A stretch of DNA of 46,532 nucleotides, from the NCBI GenBank assembly GCA_964554065.1, contig CAZKMQ010000001.1, positions 1 through 46,532 on the forward strand, written 5' to 3'. This DNA is from an uncultured Gammaproteobacteria bacterium (GTDB lineage Bacteria; Patescibacteriota; Patescibacteriia; Magasanikbacterales; JBBTQS01). The position numbers and the translations under genes were made by a program. This document shows positions 6,245 to 19,779 of the stretch, one piece after another (position 1 is the stretch's first letter; every line of letters begins with the position of its first letter). Under the pieces are notes generated by a model, which was not told the DNA's origin, made no database searches, and was given only the letters and a program-made list of their open reading frames with translations.

Positions 6245-7008
6245 TACCGAATTTTTCGTGGACAGTAATACAGCTTGGACCAATTCCCATTCAAGTATGG
6301 GGATTGTGTGTTGCTATTGGTGTGCTTGTTGGATTGTGGCTCGGTGCGCGTGAGGCAGTGAGGCGTGGTGTTAAAAAAGAATTATTTTGGGACAGTAGCT
6401 TGTGGATCGTTGTTGCTGGGTTTATTGGGGCACGGTTATCGCATGTGTTGTTTTACGAGCCGGCATTCTTTGTGAAAAACCCATTGGAGATTTTAATGGT
6501 GTGGCATGGGGGAATGAGCAGTCTTGGTGGTTTTTTGGGTGCAGCAATATTTGGTGTCTGGTATTTGCGGCGCAAAAAAATTAATATTTGGAAATATGCT
6601 GATGCAGCTGCATTTGGTTTGCCAATCGGATGGATGATAGGGCGCATTGGGTGTTTTTTGATTCATGATCATCCTGGAACATTAACAGACTTTGCTTTGG
6701 CAGTTCGCGAACCAGGTGTATTAGGTGAAGAAGGTTTTGGTCGTCATGATCTTGGGCTGTACGATGCTATTTTGGCAGGAATTATAGCGCTCGCGGTGCT
6801 CGCGCTTCGTAAAAAGAAAAAATTCGACGGGTATTTTATTTTGTTAATAGCCGGCCTGTATGCTGTACCGCGGTTTTTCCTAGATTATTTGCGTGCAAGT
6901 GACCTCAGTGGCAGTGACGCACGATATGCCGGGCTAACACCAGCGCAATATGCTTCAGTTATTGCATTGGTCTTTGTACTTTATATGTGGTATAAGAAAA
7001 GAAAGTAA
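6241..7008 (+). CDS. lgt: Prolipoprotein diacylglyceryl transferase
   Basis: A polytopic membrane protein containing 'GARLSHVLFYEP', 'WHGGMSSLGG' and 'GRIGCFLIHDHPG'. Its start overlaps the upstream stop as ATGA. Confidence 0.88.
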   Translation: MIPNFSWTVIQLGPIPIQVWGLCVAIGVLVGLWLGAREAVRRGVKKELFWDSSLWIVVAGFIGARLSHVLFYEPAFFVKNPLEILMVWHGGMSSLGGFLGAAIFGVWYLRRKKINIWKYADAAAFGLPIGWMIGRIGCFLIHDHPGTLTDFALAVREPGVLGEEGFGRHDLGLYDAILAGIIALAVLALRKKKKFDGYFILLIAGLYAVPRFFLDYLRASDLSGSDARYAGLTPAQYASVIALVFVLYMWYKKRK

Positions 7009-7021
7009 CAATTATAATTTT

Positions 7022-7720
7022 ATGAAAAAGAAAACATCAGAACCAAGAGAGAGGGTTGAGCCTGGCAAGGAGACAGTGGATAGTTCTGTTTTGGAACAGT
7101 ACGAGAAGATTATTAATGGGCATAGTGGGTACAAAGACCCTGGTTCTAAAGCGAGAAGTTTGGGGGATGCAGCTTCACTGATTGAGCGCGCTGCAAAAGG
7201 TGAATCTACGGTAGAATTCGAGAATTGGTACTATGAAACTTTCACAACTGAACAACTAAGCTCTTTAGTTCAGTTGTTGAAAAAAGAACAAGAAGTCTTA
7301 TTAAACCAGGCTGATGCTATTGAGGTTGCTGAAAATAAGAAAAAAAAGGAAAGAATAGAAAGTGAGTGGGAAGTTCATAAAGATGAGTATGATGATGAGC
7401 AGCAGTGGGAAGGACAGCCTCATACTGATTATTTTGGAGAGAGAAAATGGATTAAGACCTATGGATTTCAATATGGAGATACTGTTGTTCTTTCTTCTGA
7501 TCATGCTCCTGATAATGATGGCACATGGAAGATTGCTGGTTTTGGATATGGAGGCACAAGCACAACTGTACTTATGTTCCGTGAGGAGAAGTACTCAGAA
7601 TACATGGCTGCTAGTGATGCCTATCATGCTGACAAGACCAAAGAGAATCGTGACTTACTTTATAAGTTTGAAGCAAAGAAATTTCCAATGGAACTTCTTG
7701 AAGATGCAACTAAGAAGTAA
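7022..7720 (+). CDS. Hypothetical acidic cytosolic protein
   Basis: A 232-aa ORF starting at the ATG 'MKKKTSEP'. It has no TM segment and no motif I recognise. Coding is supported only by ORF length and position. Confidence 0.6.
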   Translation: MKKKTSEPRERVEPGKETVDSSVLEQYEKIINGHSGYKDPGSKARSLGDAASLIERAAKGESTVEFENWYYETFTTEQLSSLVQLLKKEQEVLLNQADAIEVAENKKKKERIESEWEVHKDEYDDEQQWEGQPHTDYFGERKWIKTYGFQYGDTVVLSSDHAPDNDGTWKIAGFGYGGTSTTVLMFREEKYSEYMAASDAYHADKTKENRDLLYKFEAKKFPMELLEDATKK

Positions 7721-7731
7721 TTAGTGTATCA

Positions 7732-7816
7732 GGAGAGGTGGCTGAGTGGTTTAAGGCGCCGCCTTGGAAAGGCGGTGGGGTTCACGCCCTCGCAGGTTCA
7801 AATCCTGTCCTCTCCG
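7732..7816 (+). tRNA. tRNA-Ser(GGA), class II with long variable arm
   Basis: The cloverleaf was folded by hand. Acceptor is GGAGAGG/CCTCTCC and the D stem is GCT/GGC. The anticodon stem CCGCC/GGCGG closes the loop TTGGAAA. There is a 16-nt variable arm, a T arm GCAGG-TTCAAAT-CCTGT and discriminator G. CCA is not encoded. Confidence 0.92.
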
Positions 7817-7826
7817 CTAAAAAAAA

Positions 7827-7864
7827 GAAGCCAGCACATTCGGTGGGTTGAGGATGTTGGCTTC
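7827..7864 (+). terminator. Hairpin downstream of tRNA-Ser (weak terminator candidate)
   Basis: GAAGCCAGCA (7827-7836) pairs with TGTTGGCTTC (7855-7864), giving 10 bp including one G.U, with an 18-nt loop. It is preceded by an A-run but has no clear 3' U-tract. Confidence 0.35.
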
Positions 7865-8189
7865 CTATTGGGGTTGGAGATTTGTAGGAGCTTGAGGTGA
7901 ACTTCACTACAATGTATCGCTTATTCTTGGGTATGCGACTTACGCACCGTCTTGAGGAGGGTCAAGCGCGGGCGCATTGCATGTCGATTCACCAAGATTC
8001 ACCTTTTTTCAAACAATTACATTCCTGCGAGCATTTCCCATATGCCTACTTTCACGTCGCAATGACGAACAGGATTTGATAGTGTTTTCTCTCCAAAAAA
8101 CACTATCTGCACTCTTAAGCGAACGAGTGCAAGGGACTGATTTGTGCGTATACTATATATACCGCGTAATAATTTGTCAACCTCTGGAG

Positions 8190-8954
8190 CTAGAAAAGTC
8201 CTTCTCCTGCGTTTTTGTAGTAAAATTCTAGTGGCAGACTATTTGTTTCAAAAAATCCTAATTCAAGACTTGTGGTAGGTCCGGCAACAACAATCCACTC
8301 GTTGGATTGTTTTTTTAGATACACTCGAGCAGGATCTGTGACTGTATCATCAGCGTGCACTGTGGTTTCTGCATAGGCAACTCCACTTTTGTCTTCAAAT
8401 TGTGAAGTTAGGTATACAAGTGGTTGCTTCACAGAAGAGTTTGCGATTACATGCTTACGAGTTATTGCGACAATAGCACCACTCTCATCCATGCCATCGC
8501 GCTGGAAAATTATTCGCTTTGGTATAGAATACAGTCCATCGTATGTTGTGTGTGTTGTTTCCATGAGTAGTGTGCCATCGTCTTGGTGAGTAAAAGTTGC
8601 ATTGCCGCTATCGTCGCGATCACCAACCCAATCAATTCTAAGGTTATTATTGTTAATTCTGACTGAGTTGTTTTCAGTTAGTTGCACCTCATCAATATAA
8701 AGTAGGTTGCCGTTTTTGATACGAACTGATGTGATTGATCCGGTTATTTTGTCTTTGTCATCATTTAAAAAATTGAGCGTTAGCGAGTCGATCTCAGTTC
8801 CGTCATTTAATGACAGTTCTGCTATCCATTTTCCAGAAAACACTTCTTCAGCTGTGGTAGGGCTTTTTGTTGGTATGGTTTCGTTTTGAGTTGGTGTGCA
8901 TCCAGCACCAAAAAGCAAAAGCAGTGCAGAAATTCCGAAGATGAATTTATTCAT
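8190..8954 (-). CDS. Hypothetical lipoprotein
   Basis: The 254-aa ORF has an N-terminal signal peptide with the lipobox 'LLLFGAGC'. The mature part has no recognisable domain. Confidence 0.7.
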   Translation of the reverse strand: MNKFIFGISALLLLFGAGCTPTQNETIPTKSPTTAEEVFSGKWIAELSLNDGTEIDSLTLNFLNDDKDKITGSITSVRIKNGNLLYIDEVQLTENNSVRINNNNLRIDWVGDRDDSGNATFTHQDDGTLLMETTHTTYDGLYSIPKRIIFQRDGMDESGAIVAITRKHVIANSSVKQPLVYLTSQFEDKSGVAYAETTVHADDTVTDPARVYLKKQSNEWIVVAGPTTSLELGFFETNSLPLEFYYKNAGEGLF

Positions 8955-9010
8955 ATAGTTTGATTAATCAATGATTCTATCGTATCATGGAGCTACATTA
9001 ACAATCAATT

Positions 9011-9655
9011 ATGAAACATTCACATAAACAAGCTATGCACTGGCTTTCTTTTCTTGCCGTGCTCGTTGTTATAGTTGGCGGCCTTATTTATTTGGGACAG
9101 CCAGCATCAGAAGAAGAAATTGCCTCTGAAGTATCCGCAGTTGTTGAGCAAGATAATGTAAAAGGAAGCAAAGATGCACCAATAACACTCATTGAATATA
9201 GTGATTTTCAGTGCCCAGCATGTGCTAGTGTTGCGCCGTTTTTGAGTCAGTTAAATGAGGAGATGCCAGACAAGGTTCAAATTGTGTATAGGCATTTTCC
9301 ATTGCGACAGATTCACCCGTTCGCACAGCTAGCTGCGCAGGCATCTGAGGCTGCAGCTGATCAGGATAAGTTCTGGGAGTATCATGATAAGCTTTTTGAA
9401 AATCAAAATCAGTGGGCAACTGCATCAGTTCCTGAAGAAGTGTTTACTAAGTATGCAGAAGAGCTTGAACTTGATATTGATAAATTCAAGGAAGATTTGA
9501 AAGGCAAGAGCGCAAAAAACAAAGTGAATGGAAATTATCTTGAAGCCGGTCGTATTGGGATAAATTCCACACCAACTTTATTTCTCAATGGTAAGAAAAT
9601 AAGTAATCCTGCAAATTATGCATCGCTTAAAGCGCTTGTGGAACTTGCCCAGTAA
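9011..9655 (+). CDS. DsbA-family thiol:disulfide oxidoreductase (membrane-anchored)
   Basis: It has an N-terminal TM helix and the thioredoxin-fold active site 'FQCPAC'. It also contains 'INSTPTLFLNG' (the cis-Pro loop region). Confidence 0.8.
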   Translation: MKHSHKQAMHWLSFLAVLVVIVGGLIYLGQPASEEEIASEVSAVVEQDNVKGSKDAPITLIEYSDFQCPACASVAPFLSQLNEEMPDKVQIVYRHFPLRQIHPFAQLAAQASEAAADQDKFWEYHDKLFENQNQWATASVPEEVFTKYAEELELDIDKFKEDLKGKSAKNKVNGNYLEAGRIGINSTPTLFLNGKKISNPANYASLKALVELAQ

Positions 9656-10088
9656 ACCACTGCCAAGATGGCTTGTCTGGTTAATTTTTGGTATCGCCCT
9701 TGTTGGTTTTATTGATGCAAGTTATTTAACAGTGCATCATTACCAAGGTGCTCAAGTGCTGTGTGCTGTAATTGAGGGGTGTAACAGTGTGCTTGGCAGT
9801 AAATGGGCGGAAATGATACCAGGCGTGCCAACTGCACTACTTGGTGCGTTATTCTATTTGGGTATGGTTCTTGCAGCATTCCAGTCTATAAGTAGTAAGA
9901 ATAATCAGTGGCTTATGAGATATAGCTGGATGACAATTGTTGGGCTGGTGTTCAGTGGATTTATGGTCTATTTGCAGCTCTATGTGATCCATGCTATTTG
10001 TCAGTACTGCATGTTGTCGGCACTTACCTCGACTATTTTGTTTATATTAGGTATGGTGGTGCTAAGTCTCACTCGAGAAAAGACCTAA
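9618..10088 (+). CDS. Vitamin K epoxide reductase (VKOR) family protein
   Basis: A multi-pass membrane protein with a loop Cys pair 'LCAVIEGC' and the active site 'CQYC' in the last helix region. The ATG at 9618 overlaps the dsbA-like gene by 38 nt. In-frame TTG codons at 9636 and 9645 are alternative starts. Confidence 0.75.
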   Translation: MHRLKRLWNLPSKPLPRWLVWLIFGIALVGFIDASYLTVHHYQGAQVLCAVIEGCNSVLGSKWAEMIPGVPTALLGALFYLGMVLAAFQSISSKNNQWLMRYSWMTIVGLVFSGFMVYLQLYVIHAICQYCMLSALTSTILFILGMVVLSLTREKT

Positions 10089-12972: not shown

Positions 12973-14310
12973 ATGAGTACAAAGGCGTTGCCGAAGAAAA
13001 AGGCACCCAAGAAGAAAAAATCAGCTGCTTCTAAGAAAGCGGTGAAGAAAAAAAAGCCAGTAGCAAAGAAGGTTGCAAAGAAAAAACCTATTAAGAAGAA
13101 GGTTGCTACTAGGAAGGTTGTTAAAAAAACTAAAAAGGCGGTTAAAAAGACGGTCAAGCGCGCAGTCAAGGCCAAGAAGAAGCCAACAAAGCGTACACGC
13201 CGACCAGTTGTTCCGCCACCAGCAATTCATCATATTGATACCTTGTTTCGCAAGGCAACTACACGTGGGTTTATTACTGAAACCGAGGTGTTGTTTACAT
13301 TTGGTGAGATAGAGGAGTATGTTCAGTATTATGAAGGGTTTTTGAAGGAGATGGAGCGTCAGGGGTTGCGAATTGTGGAAATGAAGGAGGGGTTTCTTGG
13401 TTCAATTGATCATAAGGCAGAAGTGCGTGATGAGTTTCATATTGAGAAAATCACTGATTTGGCGAAAGGATTTAATTTCACAGACATTAGCGCGGATTCT
13501 ATTCAAATGTATTTGCGCGAGATCGGTAAAATCCCTTTGTTGACGGCCGAACAAGAGGTTGCTTTGTCCAAGCGCAAGGAAAAGAATGAGCGTTTAGCAG
13601 AGAAGGCGCTTATTGTGGCGAACTTGCGACTGGTTGTTTCTATTGCCAAGAAGTTTGTGGGAAAAAATCTTACATTGCTTGACTTAATTCAAGAAGGGAA
13701 TATTGGATTGTTCCGTGCGGTGAAAAAGTTCGAGTATCGTAAAGGATATAAGTTCTCAACCTATGCAACCTGGTGGATTCGTCAGGCAATTACACGTGCT
13801 TTGGCTGATCAATCGCGAACCATTCGTATTCCGGTACACATGGTAGAAACGATTAACAAGTTCATGCAGATCCAGCGTCGGTTGTTGCAAGATTTGGGAC
13901 GTGATCCAACGCCAGAGGAAATTGCCGCGGAAATGGGGCAAGATGTGAAAAAGATTCGTCATATTATTAAGATTTCCCAAGATACAGTTTCATTGGAAGT
14001 GTCTGTTGGTGAAGATGATGATGATTCAAGCTTGCAAGACTTTATTGAGGATGTGAAAAGCGTAAGTCCGGATCGTGCGGCAGCACTCGAGTTGTTAAGC
14101 GACTATGTGATTGAAGCGATCGTTGATTTGTCTCCGCGTGAACAAAAGATCTTGGAAATGCGATTTGGATTGAAAGATGGAATTTCTCATACTTTGGAAG
14201 AAGTTGGTCGTGAGTTTGATGTAACACGTGAGCGTATTCGTCAGATTGAGGCTAAGGCTCTTGAGAAGATTCAGGCAATGCCAATTATTGAGAAATTGAG
14301 GGATTATTAG
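12973..14310 (+). CDS. rpoD: Primary RNA polymerase sigma factor (sigma-70) with Lys-rich N-terminal tail
   Basis: Region 2 reads '[13 protein letters not shown]...[39 protein letters not shown]'. Region 4 reads '[23 protein letters not shown]'. The first ~80 aa are almost entirely K/A/V/P. Confidence 0.93.
12982..13206 (+). repeat. Purine-rich low-complexity coding tract (Lys-rich tail of sigma factor)
   Basis: Iterated aag/aaa/gcn/gtn codons encode '[37 protein letters not shown]...'. The tract also generates spurious Phe/Leu-rich antisense ORFs. Confidence 0.7.
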
Positions 14311-14325
14311 TTATAATAAGGAGGT

Positions 14326-14826
14326 ATGGGGTATATTCATGCAATTAAAGGAACAGTCATCGCACTTGTTGTTTTTGGTGTGCTCGCGTGGTTTGTTGGT
14401 GATTTGCAGCGAGAATCTGAAGGTATTGAGGTGATTCTAACAATTAGTACGTTCTTATTTGCGATATTGGCTGGGTTTTTCATTTCTCGGCTAAACGATC
14501 GATACAACAACATTAAATACTTATTTCCGCTAATTCTCTGCACTCTTATGCTGGGAGCTGGGTGCACAGAGGCTAGTAATGAAATAAAATATACAGATGC
14601 AGATGTTGTTCAGTATGGTGATCCTCGTGCTAAGGAATGTCATATAGAGCAATGTCATCCAAGTACTGGAGATGTGAGTTGTGGTTCAAAATCAGAAGGT
14701 AAATGTAAGTATGTGCTTACAAAAGGTGATGTTTGTGCAACTGATCACATCAAGTGCGTTGTTGTAGAAGGGGAATGCCACACAGTGGGTATTAGAGATT
14801 TTGAACAATGTGAATCTGGACAATAA
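14326..14826 (+). CDS. Composite hypothetical protein: 2-TM N-terminal segment fused to an internal lipobox and a Cys-rich domain
   Basis: The 166-aa ORF starts with residues 1-64, which form two TM helices ending 'FFISRLNDRYNNI'. These are followed by a signal-peptide-like segment 'LFPLILCTLMLGAGC' and then an 8-Cys soluble domain. Confidence 0.5.
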   Translation: MGYIHAIKGTVIALVVFGVLAWFVGDLQRESEGIEVILTISTFLFAILAGFFISRLNDRYNNIKYLFPLILCTLMLGAGCTEASNEIKYTDADVVQYGDPRAKECHIEQCHPSTGDVSCGSKSEGKCKYVLTKGDVCATDHIKCVVVEGECHTVGIRDFEQCESGQ

Positions 14827-14832
14827 TTCTGT

Positions 14833-14860
14833 TTGACAAATTTCAAAAAGAGCGTACAAT
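14833..14860 (+). promoter_or_regulatory. Sigma-70-type promoter candidate for the tRNA-Asn gene
   Basis: TTGACA (14833-14838), a 16-nt spacer and TACAAT (14855-14860) lie about 30 nt upstream of the tRNA 5' end. The element overlaps the terminator hairpin of the upstream gene. Confidence 0.4.
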
Positions 14861-14877
14861 AATGGTGCGTTCTTTTT
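14845..14877 (+). terminator. Rho-independent terminator candidate
   Basis: AAAAAGAGCGTAC (14845-14857) pairs with GTGCGTTCTTTTT (14865-14877). That gives 13 bp including two G.U pairs, a 7-nt loop and a 3' arm ending in a U-run. Confidence 0.5.
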
Positions 14878-14889
14878 GATACAAAAAAT

Positions 14890-15200
14890 TCCGAGGTAGC
14901 TCAGCGGTAGAGCAGTTGGCTGTGAATTAACGCAGCTTCCGTTAGAAATGACGGTCGAATAATGAGGTGAATTGCTGGAAGCCTAAATCTAGTATCGGAC
15001 TAGATATGGTAATCAGCAGCCAAGCCCAATGCAGGGAAGGTTCAGAGACTATCCTATATGGAGTACTGTTTCGATCTATATCGAGATGGGAAGCGCCTCA
15101 CATCCTAGCGCAAGCAGGATGATGATATAGTCCACGCCACATGGAAACATGAGGATTACGTGTAACCAATTGGCCGCCGGTTCGAATCCGGCCCTCGGAG
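14890..15200 (+). tRNA. tRNA-Asn(GUU) interrupted by a group I intron (exons 14890-14923 and 15163-15200)
   Basis: The joined exons give a 72-nt cloverleaf. Acceptor is TCCGAGG/CCTCGGA and the D arm is GCTC-AGCGGTA-GAGC. The anticodon stem GTTGG/CCAAT closes the loop CTGT|TAA. The variable loop is TGGCC, the T arm is GCCGG-TTCGAAT-CCGGC and the discriminator is G. U1-A72 plus G73 match bacterial tRNA-Asn. Confidence 0.85.
14924..15162 (+). ncRNA. Group I self-splicing intron, IC3-like, no ORF
   Basis: It carries sequence blocks I recall from tRNA IC3 introns. These are GCCTAAATCTAG (14981-14992), AGCCAAGCC (15018-15026) and GGTTCAGAGACTA (15039-15051), the last pairing with ATAGTCC (15127-15133). 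Exon GGCTGT pairs with intron GCAGCT (14932-14937), placing a U.G wobble at the 5' splice site. The terminal nucleotide is G (15162). A GCAA-capped hairpin lies at 15101-15121. Confidence 0.8.
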
Positions 15201-15205
15201 CATAC

Positions 15206-15240
15206 AAAAGAATAACCCCAATATGGGGTTATTCTTTTGT
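15206..15240 (+). terminator. Rho-independent terminator after tRNA-Asn
   Basis: AAAAGAATAACCCC (15206-15219) pairs perfectly with GGGGTTATTCTTTT (15225-15238). That is 14 bp with a 5-nt loop and a U-run. Confidence 0.8.
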
Positions 15241-15385
15241 TTAATTATGAAGACTGGATTAGAACCCAAGTCCAACGAAGCTGGACGCGGTTCGCATGCG
15301 AGCGAAGTACTTGAGATAAGTTGTGCAAAACATAGTAGTGTATTAAACTGATATCAGTATAGTAATTAAATTTTGATAAAATTAT

Positions 15386-15754
15386 ATGGCAGAAAAACCA
15401 TGTTTTTGTGGACGACCTCATGCGCGAGGTGCGTGTACACAAGATGAATTTACCGTGTTGGACACTCCAGACCTTGCAATTTCACTTACTTCGTCACATG
15501 GCGGAGAAAAAGAGCATGCACTTATTCTTGATTTTGAGGATACGGTTTCTTCAGAAGATGCAAATAGCGCAACAATTACACTTGAAGTTGACGGTAAGAC
15601 TCATGCAATGGATCGTGATGAAAGTATGCCCGGCTCATATGCAATTCCACTATCAGAATTTGGAGATGTGTCATCAGGTCAAGAAGCAAAAGTAAAAATA
15701 ACCTTACCAAACGGTGAAGTTACTGAACACACATTTAATATTGGTTTGAAGTAG
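15386..15754 (+). CDS. Hypothetical protein
   Basis: A 122-aa ORF with an N-terminal 'CFCGRPHARGAC' segment and then an acidic, beta-rich-looking sequence. I recognise no family. Confidence 0.5.
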   Translation: MAEKPCFCGRPHARGACTQDEFTVLDTPDLAISLTSSHGGEKEHALILDFEDTVSSEDANSATITLEVDGKTHAMDRDESMPGSYAIPLSEFGDVSSGQEAKVKITLPNGEVTEHTFNIGLK

Positions 15755-15755
15755 T

Positions 15756-16775
15756 TTACTTCTTCGTTTTCCTGCGCTTATTCTTATTTTTGTTTGAACG
15801 CTTAGCAACTGCGCGCAAGTCCGCATGACGATCAAACTCGTCCATTATTTCTAGTCCAATAATTTCCTCCAAAATATCCTCAATACTCACCACACCGGTG
15901 GTCACGCCAAATTCGTTTTGCACAATAAACAGGTGGTGATGTGTTTTAATAAAGAAATCAAGAGCCTTGTTCAGCGGCTCATTTTCATTCACAAAAAACA
16001 CAGTCTTATTTGTAAAATCTTTCACGCGCTTGCCAACTAATGTTTTACCTAGCAGTTCATGCAAAAATAGCATACCCATGATCGTGTTGTGATCTTCTTT
16101 GTATACTGGAAATCGTGAATGCGGCGAAGATTGCAACTGTTTGATGAGTTTTTTGGTAAATTTTTGATTATATTCCAGCATTTCCGTAACCGTGTGCGGT
16201 GTCATTACGTCCACGATTTTTTTCTGTGCAAACTGCAAAGCACCTTTCAAAATGCGCTCCTCATCAGTTCGCAGATCGCTGTGCTTAGAGTTTTCATGCT
16301 CCTCAATAACACTGATCAGCTCCTTGCGTGAGAACATGCTCGGCATCTCGTGTCCAAGTGTTTTGTCCAAAACCCATGCAATGGGCCAAATAATTGGGTA
16401 CAGTACAAAAATCAAAAGGCGCACAATCCAAGCGGTTTTAGCACCAAAGACCATCGCATGGCGCGAAATCACTGCCTGTGGAATGATCTCACCAAAAAGG
16501 AAGATCAGCGCTGTGGCAATCAGCCCGGCAATTACTCCTGATGCAATTGATCCTAGGAAAATAGAAAGAGCGGCATTGACTGCTACATTGCCAAGTAATA
16601 GCGCTGTGAGCAGTAAATTGCCGCGTTTGCGAATGGGGTAGATCTTTTTAGCGTATTTATCGCCGAGTTTTATTTTGCGTTTGAGAGCGTATACATCTAA
16701 GCTCATCAATCCAAGAGTAAGTCCGGAAAAAAGAGCAGATAGCGCTATTAGTGCAACAGTGATGATGTAGGTCAT
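15756..16775 (-). CDS. CNNM/HlyC-CorC-family transporter (DUF21 membrane domain + CBS pair)
   Basis: The 339-aa ORF has an N-terminal 4-TM DUF21-like region 'LFSGLTLGLMSLD...GEIIPQA'. This is followed by a CBS-pair region 'VDVMTPHT...GVVSIEDILEEIIG'. The C-terminal CorC_HlyC domain appears absent. Confidence 0.85.
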   Translation of the reverse strand: MTYIITVALIALSALFSGLTLGLMSLDVYALKRKIKLGDKYAKKIYPIRKRGNLLLTALLLGNVAVNAALSIFLGSIASGVIAGLIATALIFLFGEIIPQAVISRHAMVFGAKTAWIVRLLIFVLYPIIWPIAWVLDKTLGHEMPSMFSRKELISVIEEHENSKHSDLRTDEERILKGALQFAQKKIVDVMTPHTVTEMLEYNQKFTKKLIKQLQSSPHSRFPVYKEDHNTIMGMLFLHELLGKTLVGKRVKDFTNKTVFFVNENEPLNKALDFFIKTHHHLFIVQNEFGVTTGVVSIEDILEEIIGLEIMDEFDRHADLRAVAKRSNKNKNKRRKTKK

Positions 16776-16877
16776 ATAGACTATATTATAGCAAATTGTA
16801 GGTGTTGGAGAAAGTTAACAAATCAAGTTGCTGGGATTTTGAGTGTGGTATACTAATTTTACTAATTTTATTACTAT

Positions 16878-17759
16878 ATGAGTTTTTCCGAGAGGCGACC
16901 TGGCGATTTATCTGAGAGCGTAACTACGCCAGAGCATATAAAAAAATCTCCGCATGATATTAGAAGTTTGTGGGAAGTAGCAAACTGTTTAAATCTTGGG
17001 CTTTGGGACCACAGATCTATGTTAACTCATTTTGATTTCTTCCCTGAAAAAGATAAAAAAGCTATTGAAAAAGCGGCTGAGACAGGTGATTATGAATCGG
17101 TACGCATTTTATTTGCGAATGGTTTTAAAGGTTTGCGCAGTGATGTTAGTTTTAACTTTGAATTCACTGGTGAATCTGTAAAGGGAGAGGCGCAGTATGA
17201 GCGTCGATGTAGTGGGTTTGAGCGCATTATGAAAACTTATTTTGATAAGTATAAGGATGAGATCCCAGAAGATAAAGTTGGGTATTTCAATGGCAAAATC
17301 ATGCTTGCAAGAAAGTTGTTAAATGATAGTGATAAAGTGTCAACAGCAAATGGTACAGAAGCCATGAGAAAAGTTGTGCGGGAGGTGATGGATACGTATA
17401 TGCAAAGGAATTTTTTATTAAGAATTAAAAAAAACGTTGAAAAAATAGAAGAGCAGCTGCCGCATGTTATGAATGCTAGGGTGCAAGGCTATAAAAATGG
17501 GATTGAATCAGTTCAGCATGGGATTGACTTGTTAATTGGTGATGATTCTTTTGATGTGTCTTCATTTAGTCAATATAGATTGAATGAGTTGCAAAAAGCA
17601 GATAAAAAAATAAAGAATTTATTAAACAATATTAAGAGTGATTATAAGGATGCAACCGGTGAGGGGTGGTTGTCTTTACCTGATGCTGAGCCTGGCTCTG
17701 GTGCTTTGAGTTTAGATCAGCAAGGAGGAGCTCTTTCTGTGCCTGACACAAAGGAATAA
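16878..17759 (+). CDS. Hypothetical protein, tandem paralog A (293 aa)
   Basis: It shares with the next gene the motif 'PEHIKKSPHDIRSLWEV' and C-terminal repeats 'GWLSLPD..GALSLDQ..GALSVPD'. It has no TM segment and looks helical and charged. Confidence 0.7.
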   Translation: MSFSERRPGDLSESVTTPEHIKKSPHDIRSLWEVANCLNLGLWDHRSMLTHFDFFPEKDKKAIEKAAETGDYESVRILFANGFKGLRSDVSFNFEFTGESVKGEAQYERRCSGFERIMKTYFDKYKDEIPEDKVGYFNGKIMLARKLLNDSDKVSTANGTEAMRKVVREVMDTYMQRNFLLRIKKNVEKIEEQLPHVMNARVQGYKNGIESVQHGIDLLIGDDSFDVSSFSQYRLNELQKADKKIKNLLNNIKSDYKDATGEGWLSLPDAEPGSGALSLDQQGGALSVPDTKE

Positions 17760-17760
17760 T

Positions 17761-18642
17761 ATGATTAAATTCTTCGAAAGACTGAGACATGGTAATCCGG
17801 AAAAATCTCCTATGGAAGTGCCACCACGACCGGAACATATTAAAAAGGCACCGCATGATATTCAAAAGTTGTGGGAGGTTTTTATTGTTGAAAAACAATT
17901 GACTGGCAGTTTACCTAGTCGTGTTATGGACTGGAAAAAAAGAGAAGAATTGTTTGAGAGTTCAGTTAAGAATCAACGATACGATGCTTTGCGATTGCAG
18001 CTTGCAAATGATTTGTTTGGCAATTTTGCTCGCGTACTGCCTGCTGATGATGCAAACTGGATTGAGCGGTATAGGGGAAAGGATCCTGTACAAGTAAATA
18101 ATGAACGCTCGACTGAATTGGTTGAACTCTACTTGCAATTGTATGAAGATGAATTGCCACGTGATGCTTTTTCAAAGCAGTTAGAGCAGATAGAGTTGGT
18201 AAAAGATTTGCATAAGAAAAAGGAATTTAGTAAAGCATCAGTTGAAATGGGTAGAGCATTTCGTAGTGTTGTTGGTGGTTATATTAGTCGTAAATCTTTT
18301 GCAATGGTGCTGGAGCGTGCGGAGTTGTTACGGTCACGGATACAATTTGTTGAACCTGCGAAGAAGGTTAAGCACACAAAAAAGATTGAAGGTTTTGAGG
18401 AAAGAATCAAGGCAATTTGTGGAGAAGATGGTTTTGGTGATGATCGGCAAACTCCAGTATATGATTTTGAATCAATTGTTAAGTTGTTTAATGATATAAG
18501 TGAGTATACGAAGAAGATGAAAAATGATTTTGCGGAAACCGGTGATTTGGGTCATTTGGCCTTGGTTGATAGCGAAGAAGGCATGGGTAATTTGAGTTTA
18601 TCAGAAGACTCTGGTAATCTTTCATTACATAAATCTAAATAA
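17761..18642 (+). CDS. Hypothetical protein, tandem paralog B (293 aa)
   Basis: It starts 1 nt after paralog A's stop. It carries the motif '[17 protein letters not shown]' and C-terminal repeats 'GHLALVD..GNLSLSE..GNLSLHK'. Confidence 0.7.
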
Positions 18643-18644
18643 TT

Positions 18645-19205
18645 ATGTCTAAAAAAGTAATTCTCATATTAAGCATAGCTTTGCTTGGCTTTGGCTGCGG
18701 CACAGCACAATCACCTGAAAAATCTATGGAAAAAGCAATAATTAAAACCAGTCTTGGCGATATCACAGTCGCATTTCATCCAGAATCACCAAAAACTGTG
18801 GATAACTTTGTGAAATTAGCTGGTGAAGGTTTTTATGATGGAACGCGATTCCATCGCATTATCAAGGACTTCATGGTGCAAGGTGGAGATCCATTAAGTA
18901 AAGAGGAAGACAAAGCGGATTTTTGGGGAACTGGTGGTCCTGGATATAAGTTTGATGATGAATTTAATAGCCATAAGTTGGTAAAAGGTTCACTGGCTAT
19001 GGCAAATTCAGGACCAAACACAAACGGAAGTCAATTTTTTATCGTGACTGCAGAGGCAACACCTTGGCTTGATGGTATGCATACAAATTTTGGTTATGTA
19101 ACTGATGGTATGGATGTATTAGACGCCCTAAACGCAGTTCAAACTGCCGCGGCTGATCGTCCAGTTGAGGCTGTGACGATTACCGGAATTGATTTGGTGA
19201 AATAG
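18645..19205 (+). CDS. Cyclophilin-type peptidyl-prolyl cis-trans isomerase, lipoprotein
   Basis: It has the lipobox 'LLGFGCG'. Cyclophilin motifs '[15 protein letters not shown]' and '[17 protein letters not shown]' are present. Confidence 0.9.
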
Positions 19206-19245
19206 CGTTCTGAAAAAAGAACTAAAAAAAATCGCAGCCTCAGGT

Positions 19246-19779
19246 TTGGCTGGTTCATTCTCTGAAGAAGCTGCTTTGGTCTATGCACAGCGGATGAGTT
19301 TTGAGCCTGAAGTGTTATACAAAACAGATATGGCGGGTGTGCTTTCGTCTGTAGATTCTGGCGAGAGTTTGCTTGGTATTTTTCCTGTTGTGAATTCACG
19401 CGGTGGTTTAGTTCACAGCGCTTTTTCTGCAATGGGAAAATTTCAATTCAATATGATTGATGAGGTGTGGCTTGAGGTTTATCAGTGTCTTTTAGTGCTT
19501 CCTGGGACTAAGCGAGAATCAATTTCCAAAATCATAAGTCATCCACAGGCAATCGCGCAATGTGAACGCTATTTGCGTACAGAATTTGAGGGTGTGTCAC
19601 TTGGTGAGTGGGATGATACTGCAAAAGCTGCAGAAGATTTGGCAAAAGGAACATTCAGTGAAACAACTGCTGTAATTGCGCCGGCGCGCAGTGCTCAAAT
19701 GTATGGACTTGAACTACTTGAAAAAGGGATACATGATAATCATCCCAACCTTACGACCTTTATAGTTGTGACAAAATAA
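19246..19779 (+). CDS. Prephenate dehydratase catalytic (PDT) domain protein, no ACT domain, start uncertain
   Basis: PDT-like blocks 'GSFSEEAAL', 'GIFPVVNSRGGLV', 'ISHPQAIAQCERYL' and 'AVIAPARSAQMYGL' are present, and the protein ends at 'NLTTFIVV'. The in-frame upstream codons encode 'LKKELKKIAASGL', which looks like the missing first strand. That stretch contains no ATG, GTG or TTG. Confidence 0.65.
   Translation: MAGSFSEEAALVYAQRMSFEPEVLYKTDMAGVLSSVDSGESLLGIFPVVNSRGGLVHSAFSAMGKFQFNMIDEVWLEVYQCLLVLPGTKRESISKIISHPQAIAQCERYLRTEFEGVSLGEWDDTAKAAEDLAKGTFSETTAVIAPARSAQMYGLELLEKGIHDNHPNLTTFIVVTK

Follow-up and report, generated by a model that had tools for sequence, protein, structure and literature searches.

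The window analysed here is a 46,532-nucleotide (nt) stretch of contig CAZKMQ010000001.1, taken from a Patescibacteria genome of 837 kb that is assembled in 82 contigs and is about 95% complete. It carries two adjacent genes, denoted A and B, whose products belong to a family that is defined by two end modules, an N-terminal box (N box) and a triple C-terminal motif (the tail), and not by the core that lies between them. An earlier examination of the letters alone (the sequence-only reading) had singled out the pair and had suggested that its conserved termini are docking or recognition peptides for a partner, a protease or a secretion machine. The features of the two genes are as follows.

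16878-17759, + strand: gene A, an open reading frame (ORF) with native codon usage in frame, encoding a soluble, all-helical orphan protein of 293 amino acids (aa), isoelectric point (pI) 5.8
16929-16979, + strand: N box of A, residues 18-34 (PEHIKKSPHDIRSLWEV), from the alignment
17238-17273, + strand: conserved core island of A, residues 121-132 (YFDKYKDEIPED), from the A/B alignment
17664-17747, + strand: tail of A, with GWLSLPD (starting at residue 263), GALSLDQ (275) and GALSVPD (284)
17761-18642, + strand: gene B, encoding a 293-aa paralog of A (26% identity), pI 6.4
17830-17880, + strand: N box of B, 17 residues (24-40), from the alignment
18130-18165, + strand: conserved core island of B, residues 124-135, from the A/B alignment
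18550-18633, + strand: tail of B, with GHLALVD (starting at residue 264), GNLSLSE (276) and GNLSLHK (285)

The two ORFs lie on the same strand and, as originally described, are separated by a single base: the junction reads TAA-T-ATG, with the stop codon of A at 17757-17759 and the start codon of B at 17761. The equal length of the two products holds if B starts at 17761, but not in every gene call; A is called as 293 aa by NCBI, JGI and ENA, whereas B is 293 aa according to NCBI and JGI and 276 aa (starting at M18) according to ENA and Logan. The longer call for B is the better one, because a Shine-Dalgarno-like AAGGA precedes the 17761 start by 5 nt and the first residues of B resemble those of A (F-x-E-R-x-R-x-G). 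The AAGGA, recognized by reading the sequence, lies inside the end of A (17751-17755, + strand) and points to translational coupling of B to A. Codon usage identifies A and B as real, native genes: their in-frame synonymous-codon scores (0.09 and 0.16) match the reference of 292 long ORFs from the genome (0.11 ± 0.07), while shifted frames score negative. The pair is seen in one sample only. A second assembly (L008) has the same sequence with N gaps and a third stretch (L009) is identical, so that there is no variation between the window, L008 and L009 from which a ratio of nonsynonymous to synonymous substitution rates could be derived.

A and B align from end to end (BLASTP, 26% identity across 279 residues, E 2e-19), but the similarity is concentrated at the termini. 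The N box, reported initially as a nearly identical block of 17 residues, has 14/17 residues in common, whereas only 41 of 219 aligned core residues (19%) are identical. The impression that the core has diverged almost beyond recognition needs a reservation, since small islands survive in it, among them Y-x3-Y-x-D-E-[IL]-P-x-D and G-[DE]-D-[SG]-F. Of the 14 identical N-box residues, six are encoded by a different codon in B, and the nucleotide identity of the two cores is 40%; the box has therefore been kept by selection at the protein level. Recent gene conversion as the source of its identity is ruled out by the six synonymous codon differences. The box has the form E-x-I-x5-D-I-x2-h-h-x-h (h, hydrophobic) and is an amphipathic helix. 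An HD-type metal site (H...HD) within it was considered and ruled out, as both histidines are lost in the more distant relatives described below.

The tail is acidic and intrinsically disordered, and comprises three copies of G-x-L-(S/T/A)-(L/V) at fixed spacing; V/P/A and then D/E frequently come next. In A and B themselves each of the three copies noted at the outset fits G-x-L-(S/A)-(L/V), and the copies are spaced 12 and then 9 residues apart in both proteins. The last 36 residues of A carry a net charge of -6 and the tail of B one of -5; the net charges of the tails range from -3 to -7. In AlphaFold2 models the predicted local distance difference test (pLDDT) falls below 50 in the tail, and the model of B draws motifs 2 and 3 as a beta hairpin of low confidence. 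A six-frame scan of the entire 837-kb genome found no other ORF with three such motifs or with an N box.

The models are of moderate quality (pLDDT 64 and predicted template-modelling score (pTM) 0.60 for A; pLDDT 68 and pTM 0.69 for B). Both show nine helices in the same order, the longest of 44 residues, followed by the disordered tail. Both proteins are mildly acidic and very hydrophilic and neither has a signal peptide. The absence of transmembrane (TM) segments, claimed from the sequence, was confirmed by the maximal Kyte-Doolittle hydropathy in a 19-residue window, 0.4 for A and 0.77 for B. No structural match was found by Foldseek (best E 0.26 for A and 0.47 for B against the PDB, 0.08 for A against BFVD; all query-normalized TM-scores ≤ 0.29); the AlphaFold2 alignments comprised two sequences only, and with models of moderate pLDDT (64-68) the lack of a match is weak evidence.

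The initial statement that the proteins fall in no recognizable family is upheld by every library searched. In Pfam, A and B score at most 14-15 bits where the cut-offs lie at 27, NCBIfam contained no match, PHROGs and PADLOC gave E values of 0.009 or worse, and a sequence-profile search of the PDB gave 0.97 or worse. Searched alone against the family libraries, the end modules gave no match either. A word-seeded search of 5.8 billion proteins returned the window's own proteins only, and 1.84 billion representatives, searched with a full HMMER profile, yielded these and one repeat protein of 3,048 aa (P0003, eight matching stretches), which we reject as spurious. Scans seeded with the N box had no match in genomes, metagenomes or viral contigs. 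At the level of sequence, A and B represent a new family with a new motif.

Relatives were recognized by their ends. In 240 genomes of the same order, a profile built from A and B gave E-values at noise level only; one weak match, in genome G173 (same order, different family), fell on the tail of a helical orphan protein. A profile with a masked core, searched against 5.8 billion proteins, found A, B and a 441-aa ORF that is a piece of the same G173 protein, and nothing else. The G173 locus contains two adjacent genes for much longer helical proteins, of 487 aa (P0011) and 559 aa, situated between what we take, by sequence signature, to be the GAPDH and PGK genes. The 487-aa protein starts ...NELILAADSDIQEVIARI and ends ...GRLSVVGVEKMSGALSVPEAVGGLDLVRKEDEV; its tail motifs are GRLSVVG-5-GALSVPE-2-GGLDLVR, where the numbers denote intervening residues. 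The 559-aa protein starts ...KLELIDGSPADIRDSIFA and ends ...GRLTLADTSTGGLSLAENGGLSLVDEENEVDQNQ, with GRLTLAD-3-GGLSLAE-1-GGLSLVD. All four proteins are soluble, helical and encoded in tandem, and share the box E-x-I-x5-D-I and three copies of G-x-L-(S/T/A/D)-(L/V) spaced 10-12 and 8-9 residues apart. Only four positions of the N box are invariant (E19, I21, D27 and I28 in A); in addition, 'FDFFPEKDKK' of A echoes 'DDFSFPEKEK' of the 559-aa protein. The cores measure ∼ 230 residues in A and B and 400-480 in the G173 proteins, the G173 cores align neither with A or B nor with each other, and neither G173 protein has a match in Pfam, HEAT and ARM repeats included.

Two further observations concern the G173 locus. 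In the NCBI record (L114 7385-9674, G173:C1) the 487-aa gene is split into ORFs of 405 and 441 aa by a 1,152-bp direct duplication with 99.8% identical copies; an independent Logan assembly of the same organism has the gene intact, and the duplication is probably an assembly artefact. Directly upstream of the pair (L114 4930-7320) lies a gene for a 796-aa orphan, a very charged protein with a long Pro/Lys-rich stretch (PKPEIPKPEPPKPEP..., KRKPKLPKPRIGKPKPPRLGK) and no Pfam match. It was considered as a third member and rejected, as its tail does not fit the motif matrix.

The G173 case rests on motif, spacing, C-terminal position, gene adjacency and N box taken together, because profile scores alone are not significant. 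A motif test was built on A and B only (two copies of G.L[SA][LV], 8-12 residues apart, within the last 50 residues). It was satisfied by none of ∼ 2,400 background ORFs (2.07 Mb of genome and loci), its sole carriers being A, B and the G173 pair. By an analytic estimate, the chance of such an adjacent motif pair arising in 240 genomes is about 1e-5. On the strength of these comparisons we accept the G173 pair as a true relative, or at least a true analogue. The A3 tail profile revealed no further member in 240 genomes from the order, 401 from the class and 401 from the phylum. Its other matches are noise, including the weak ones on L133, L134 and L103: at the L133 match there is no tail-bearing ORF (the frame presumably encodes a dehydrogenase), the L134 frame is one that we take to be HrcA-like, and L103 has one internal motif only. 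The motifs noted in A and B are thus kept in the sole relatives found, which again stand in tandem, and no characterized family accounts for either pair. We conclude that A and B are old tandem paralogs, and that their family, one of soluble all-alpha proteins of Patescibacteria, is very rare, diverges fast, is patchily distributed and is set among housekeeping genes in both genomes.

The tail alone was also found outside this family. A strict in-frame DNA pattern for an A/B-type tail, which forces the G, L, S/A and L positions, matched seven stretches in a metagenome collection and none in viral contigs. Three of the seven are junk and four are the C-terminal tails of two distinct HEAT-repeat proteins (Pfam HEAT_2, E 2e-10 and 3e-13) from bacteria with 57-61% G+C. 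These tails (...AGGLALVDRQSQEGGLSLADDGGQLTLADGASRRESR and ...AGQLSLLDPVVSMGALSLATEQGGLSLASSEQDRGSLHVVDQVRAKS) read ...GGLALVD-5-GGLSLAD-2-GQLTLAD and ...GQLSLLD-5-GALSLAT-2-GGLSLAS. Positions that the pattern leaves free agree as well: V/A and then D follow the motif, the context is acidic, the array lies within the last 36-46 residues, and whole motifs are close (GRLTLAD and GQLTLAD, GHLALVD and GGLALVD). With a matrix built from the 12 Patescibacteria motifs, the two HEAT tails reach 19.2/13.4 and 14.7/11.4 bits; the highest background score in 227,237 windows is 13.5 bits. Neither HEAT protein has an N box. The tail is therefore an independent module whose partner is unlikely to be the N box, and because it occurs without that box on HEAT proteins of unrelated phyla, the partner should be external and widely conserved.

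One HEAT+tail gene has a suggestive neighbour. On L142 (ena:ERZ27257527:k141_1330202) a gene for a lidless Hsp70-family protein (PF00012, 562 aa) ends 31 nt before it. The L142 interval concerned is 6676-9826; after the HEAT+tail gene come a 388-aa protein that looks membrane-anchored (a hydrophobic stretch near the N-terminus, judged by eye) and a 432-aa protein. HEAT+tail stretches also lie on L136, L137, L138 and L139. Among the chance matches to the tail pattern is L140 (Ga0316189_10124860), an unrelated ORF with tandem repeats of ∼ 20 residues, '...AGKLTL(T/M/I)VG(Y/Q)(R/G)AFSLAD(R/S)(F/L)PQ...'.

These data are consistent with a model in which A and B serve as soluble helical scaffolds, each docking to a conserved partner through its trivalent acidic tail. 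We put this model forward tentatively, at a little short of an even chance. The helical core would serve as scaffold or spacer, free to drift in sequence and length, and the two paralogs would probably act together as a hetero-oligomer. The tail would be a portable array of three short linear motifs, bound in an extended, beta-strand-like form by a conserved and probably oligomeric partner. The original docking proposal is supported in part, as both end modules recur on the unalignable G173 cores and the tail alone on HEAT proteins.

As a weak candidate for the partner we consider an Hsp70-type chaperone, for which the tail could act as a tethered pseudo-substrate or as a peptide that recruits the substrate-binding domain. 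There is a precedent in the armadillo-repeat exchange factors of Hsp70. Fes1 is an armadillo-repeat nucleotide exchange factor (PMC6615629), and the flexible 'release domains' of such factors are proposed to be pseudo-substrates in the client groove (PMC9346034). Fes1/HspBP1, as well as the BAG proteins, share with the proteins described here a helical scaffold that bears a flexible hydrophobic peptide, and one bacterial HEAT+tail protein is encoded directly after an Hsp70-like gene. On the other hand, A, B and the G173 proteins have no ARM or HEAT repeats in Pfam and no sequence similarity to these factors, the A/B tail is C-terminal, trivalent and acidic, and A and B are not encoded beside dnaK. 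Several points weigh against the chaperone specifically. The link depends on the single L142 neighbourhood; dnaK adjoins neither the window locus nor the G173 locus; and canonical DnaK disfavours acidic flanks (Rudiger-type binding motifs). Hsp70 is the one concrete choice of partner, but an improbable one. We regard as at least equally doubtful the wider proposal that the acidic triple G-x-L-S-L-x-D tail is an undescribed cross-phylum bacterial docking signal, a tethered pseudo-substrate or an array that recruits Hsp70-type chaperones. A, B and the G173 relatives would then be helical co-chaperones or adaptors peculiar to Patescibacteria, through which a second activity, bound to the N box, is brought to the chaperone.

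Other evidence counts against docking as such, and leads to the alternative that survives best, namely a lineage-specific orphan duplication without any docking function. Its ends would be conserved as a structural part (N box) or as a low-complexity remnant (tail), and the likeness to the G173 and HEAT proteins would reflect convergence or chance. In both models the N box is among the better-modelled stretches (block pLDDT 81-85), so that it may belong to the fold and not be a free docking peptide. A hidden Markov model (HMM) made from the A and B tails scores the G173 tails at only 8.8 and 7.2 bits, hhalign of the A/B against the G173 tails gives an E value of 0.06, and the family occurs in 2 of the ∼ 1,040 Patescibacteria genomes sampled. 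In the metagenome scan most motif positions were fixed by the pattern and some of the matches were junk, which leaves real room for convergence of the HEAT tails. Chance does not readily explain, however, why two adjacent G173 genes should each combine a divergent N-box-like start with a triple tail, when the motif is absent from the ∼ 2,400 background ORFs; nor does it explain the agreement at unconstrained positions, or why the tails are always acidic and always lie within the last ∼ 50 residues. We consider this alternative rather unlikely.

It is less likely again that A and B are effectors of an episymbiont, secreted or injected into its host by a non-Sec route (type IV-like or of another kind), with the N box and tail as export or chaperone-binding signals. 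The patchy spread, the fast divergence and the variable or housekeeping contexts (rpoD-SpoU in the window; presumably GAPDH-PGK in G173) would fit effectors, and disordered acidic C-termini are typical of type IV secretion signals. Neither a signal peptide nor a TM segment is present, however, secretion genes are lacking beside the window locus and the G173 locus, and the tail is also found on cytoplasmic-looking HEAT proteins beside an Hsp70 gene. VirB4 (PF03135) had no match in G000, G173 or seven relatives, in a search with one model that divergent Patescibacteria VirB4/VirD4 proteins may escape and that did not extend to the coupling protein. G000 encodes a single FtsK with one domain, which speaks against an ATPase of the EssC/EccC type.

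The type VII pairs (EsxA/EsxB, PE/PPE) resemble A and B in being tandem, weakly similar, all-helical partners with a flexible C-terminal motif. They are hairpins of ∼ 100 aa, however, whereas A and B have 293 aa and nine helices and, by inspection, no WXG or YxxxD/E motif. An identity as type VII substrate was rejected, as the only FtsK_SpoIIIE match in G000 is one domain in an 810-aa frame and no multi-FtsK EssC/EccC ATPase is present. Encapsulin cargo-loading peptides are likewise short Gly/Ser/Leu motifs in a disordered C-terminal tail that docks to a partner. Encapsulin targeting peptides have basic flanks, whereas the A/B tails are acidic-flanked and hold three copies at fixed spacing. 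A role as encapsulin cargo was also rejected: the shell gene (PF04454) had no match at E ≤ 1 in G000, while control genomes did match.

The co-conservation of both ends in all four Patescibacteria proteins, with cores of variable length and genes in tandem heterotypic pairs, could also be read as the mark of a self-assembling scaffold or cytoskeletal heteropolymer, in which subunits join head to tail, the N box of each binding its neighbour's tail, much as the conserved rod ends of intermediate-filament pairs do. Two findings make the arrangement very doubtful: the N box is missing from the HEAT proteins that bear the tail, and the models of A and B show multi-helix bundles (see above), not long rods. 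Hub and ruler proteins (PopZ, FliK/YscP and intermediate-filament rods) offer the same picture of conserved termini around a middle that varies in sequence and length, but this is an analogy of design only: the middle of A and B folds as a helical bundle, homology is absent, and the context is neither flagellar nor that of an injectisome. We can all but set aside a degradation or adaptor tag for an AAA+ protease (ClpXP, ClpCP or Lon), with A and B as short-lived proteins or cargo adaptors, since a tail that is C-terminal, disordered and multivalent would suit such a tag but its extreme C-termini are not conserved (...PDTKE, ...LHKSK, ...KEDEV, ...VDQNQ), as those of known C-terminal degrons (ssrA-type tags) are, and no protease gene is nearby.

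Two further identities were examined and rejected. The tripartite alpha-pore-forming toxins (AhlB/SmhB, ClyA family) are encoded as adjacent, weakly similar helical paralogs of ∼ 300-350 aa and are among the top Foldseek matches. These matches have E values of 0.3 or worse and TM-scores of 0.12-0.16, and the hydropathy maxima given above leave no hydrophobic head or tongue. The resemblance of 'SVPDTKE' in A to the GroES mobile loop ('IIPDTANKE') does not indicate mimicry: scored with the tail matrix, the organism's own loop, ASGIIIPDT, comes 6,239th among 227,807 windows, no better than background, and the two sequences are out of register.

The remaining features of the locus concern expression and gene neighbourhood.

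16828-16854, + strand: putative promoter of the pair, TTGCTG, a 15-nt spacer and an extended -10 element TGgTATACT (16846-16854), read from the sequence
18645-19205, + strand: cyclophilin-type peptidyl-prolyl isomerase with a signal peptide and Cys (Pfam PF00160, E 5e-49), starting 2 nt past the stop codon of B

The pair has its own upstream intergenic region, as first noted: 102 nt separate A from a divergent CNNM/CBS gene. The extended -10 element lies 23 nt before the ATG of A; a consensus promoter scan did not list this promoter, whose spacer is 15 nt. The leader of A (16855-16877) is ∼ 17 nt long and has no Shine-Dalgarno sequence, nor has the cyclophilin gene. To judge from the spacing, A and B are probably co-transcribed. 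The downstream gene, described at the outset as a lipoprotein cyclophilin, indeed encodes a cyclophilin with a signal peptide and Cys, and it probably belongs to the same transcript, because the gaps from A to B and from B to the cyclophilin gene are only 1 and 2 nt. A functional link of A and B to the cyclophilin is not supported. No conserved link exists in the relatives, as the G002 and G004 orthologs of the cyclophilin have other genes upstream.

The order of genes in this part of the window is dnaG, rpoD, tRNA-Asn, a CNNM/CBS transporter (other strand), A, B, cyclophilin, a prephenate dehydratase domain and a SpoU methylase. The RpoD of the genome is closest to those of Uhrbacteria-, Falkowbacteria- and Kerfeldbacteria-type Patescibacteria; the RpoD homolog begins with a basic, Lys/Ala/Pro-rich tail of ∼ 80 residues (12973-13215). 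Between rpoD and SpoU (14326-19779, compared with L017, G001:C3) the content is wholly different in a species of the same genus, G001, where we take the interval to hold a patatin-like gene (by reading of the sequence) and a multi-TM membrane protein. Positional counterparts of A and B are absent from G001, and G002 and G004 carry unrelated genes beside their CNNM and cyclophilin orthologs. The rpoD-SpoU stretch is a local hotspot for the turnover of genes, in which no integrase is visible.

Docking by short linear motifs has been mapped well in eukaryotes, but in bacteria such motifs are barely catalogued. The novelty of A and B rests on the absence of relatives and not on a mechanism, and if the tail is non-specific they are one more lineage-specific orphan pair. 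If the docking model is correct, the portable trivalent C-terminal array would be a new and testable signal that is common to orphans of the ultra-small Patescibacteria and to HEAT proteins of other phyla, one of them encoded beside an atypical Hsp70, and it would open a way into two sets of 'dark matter' genes. Some apparent ORFans, as the G173 relatives show, belong to families that are recognizable only by their ends.

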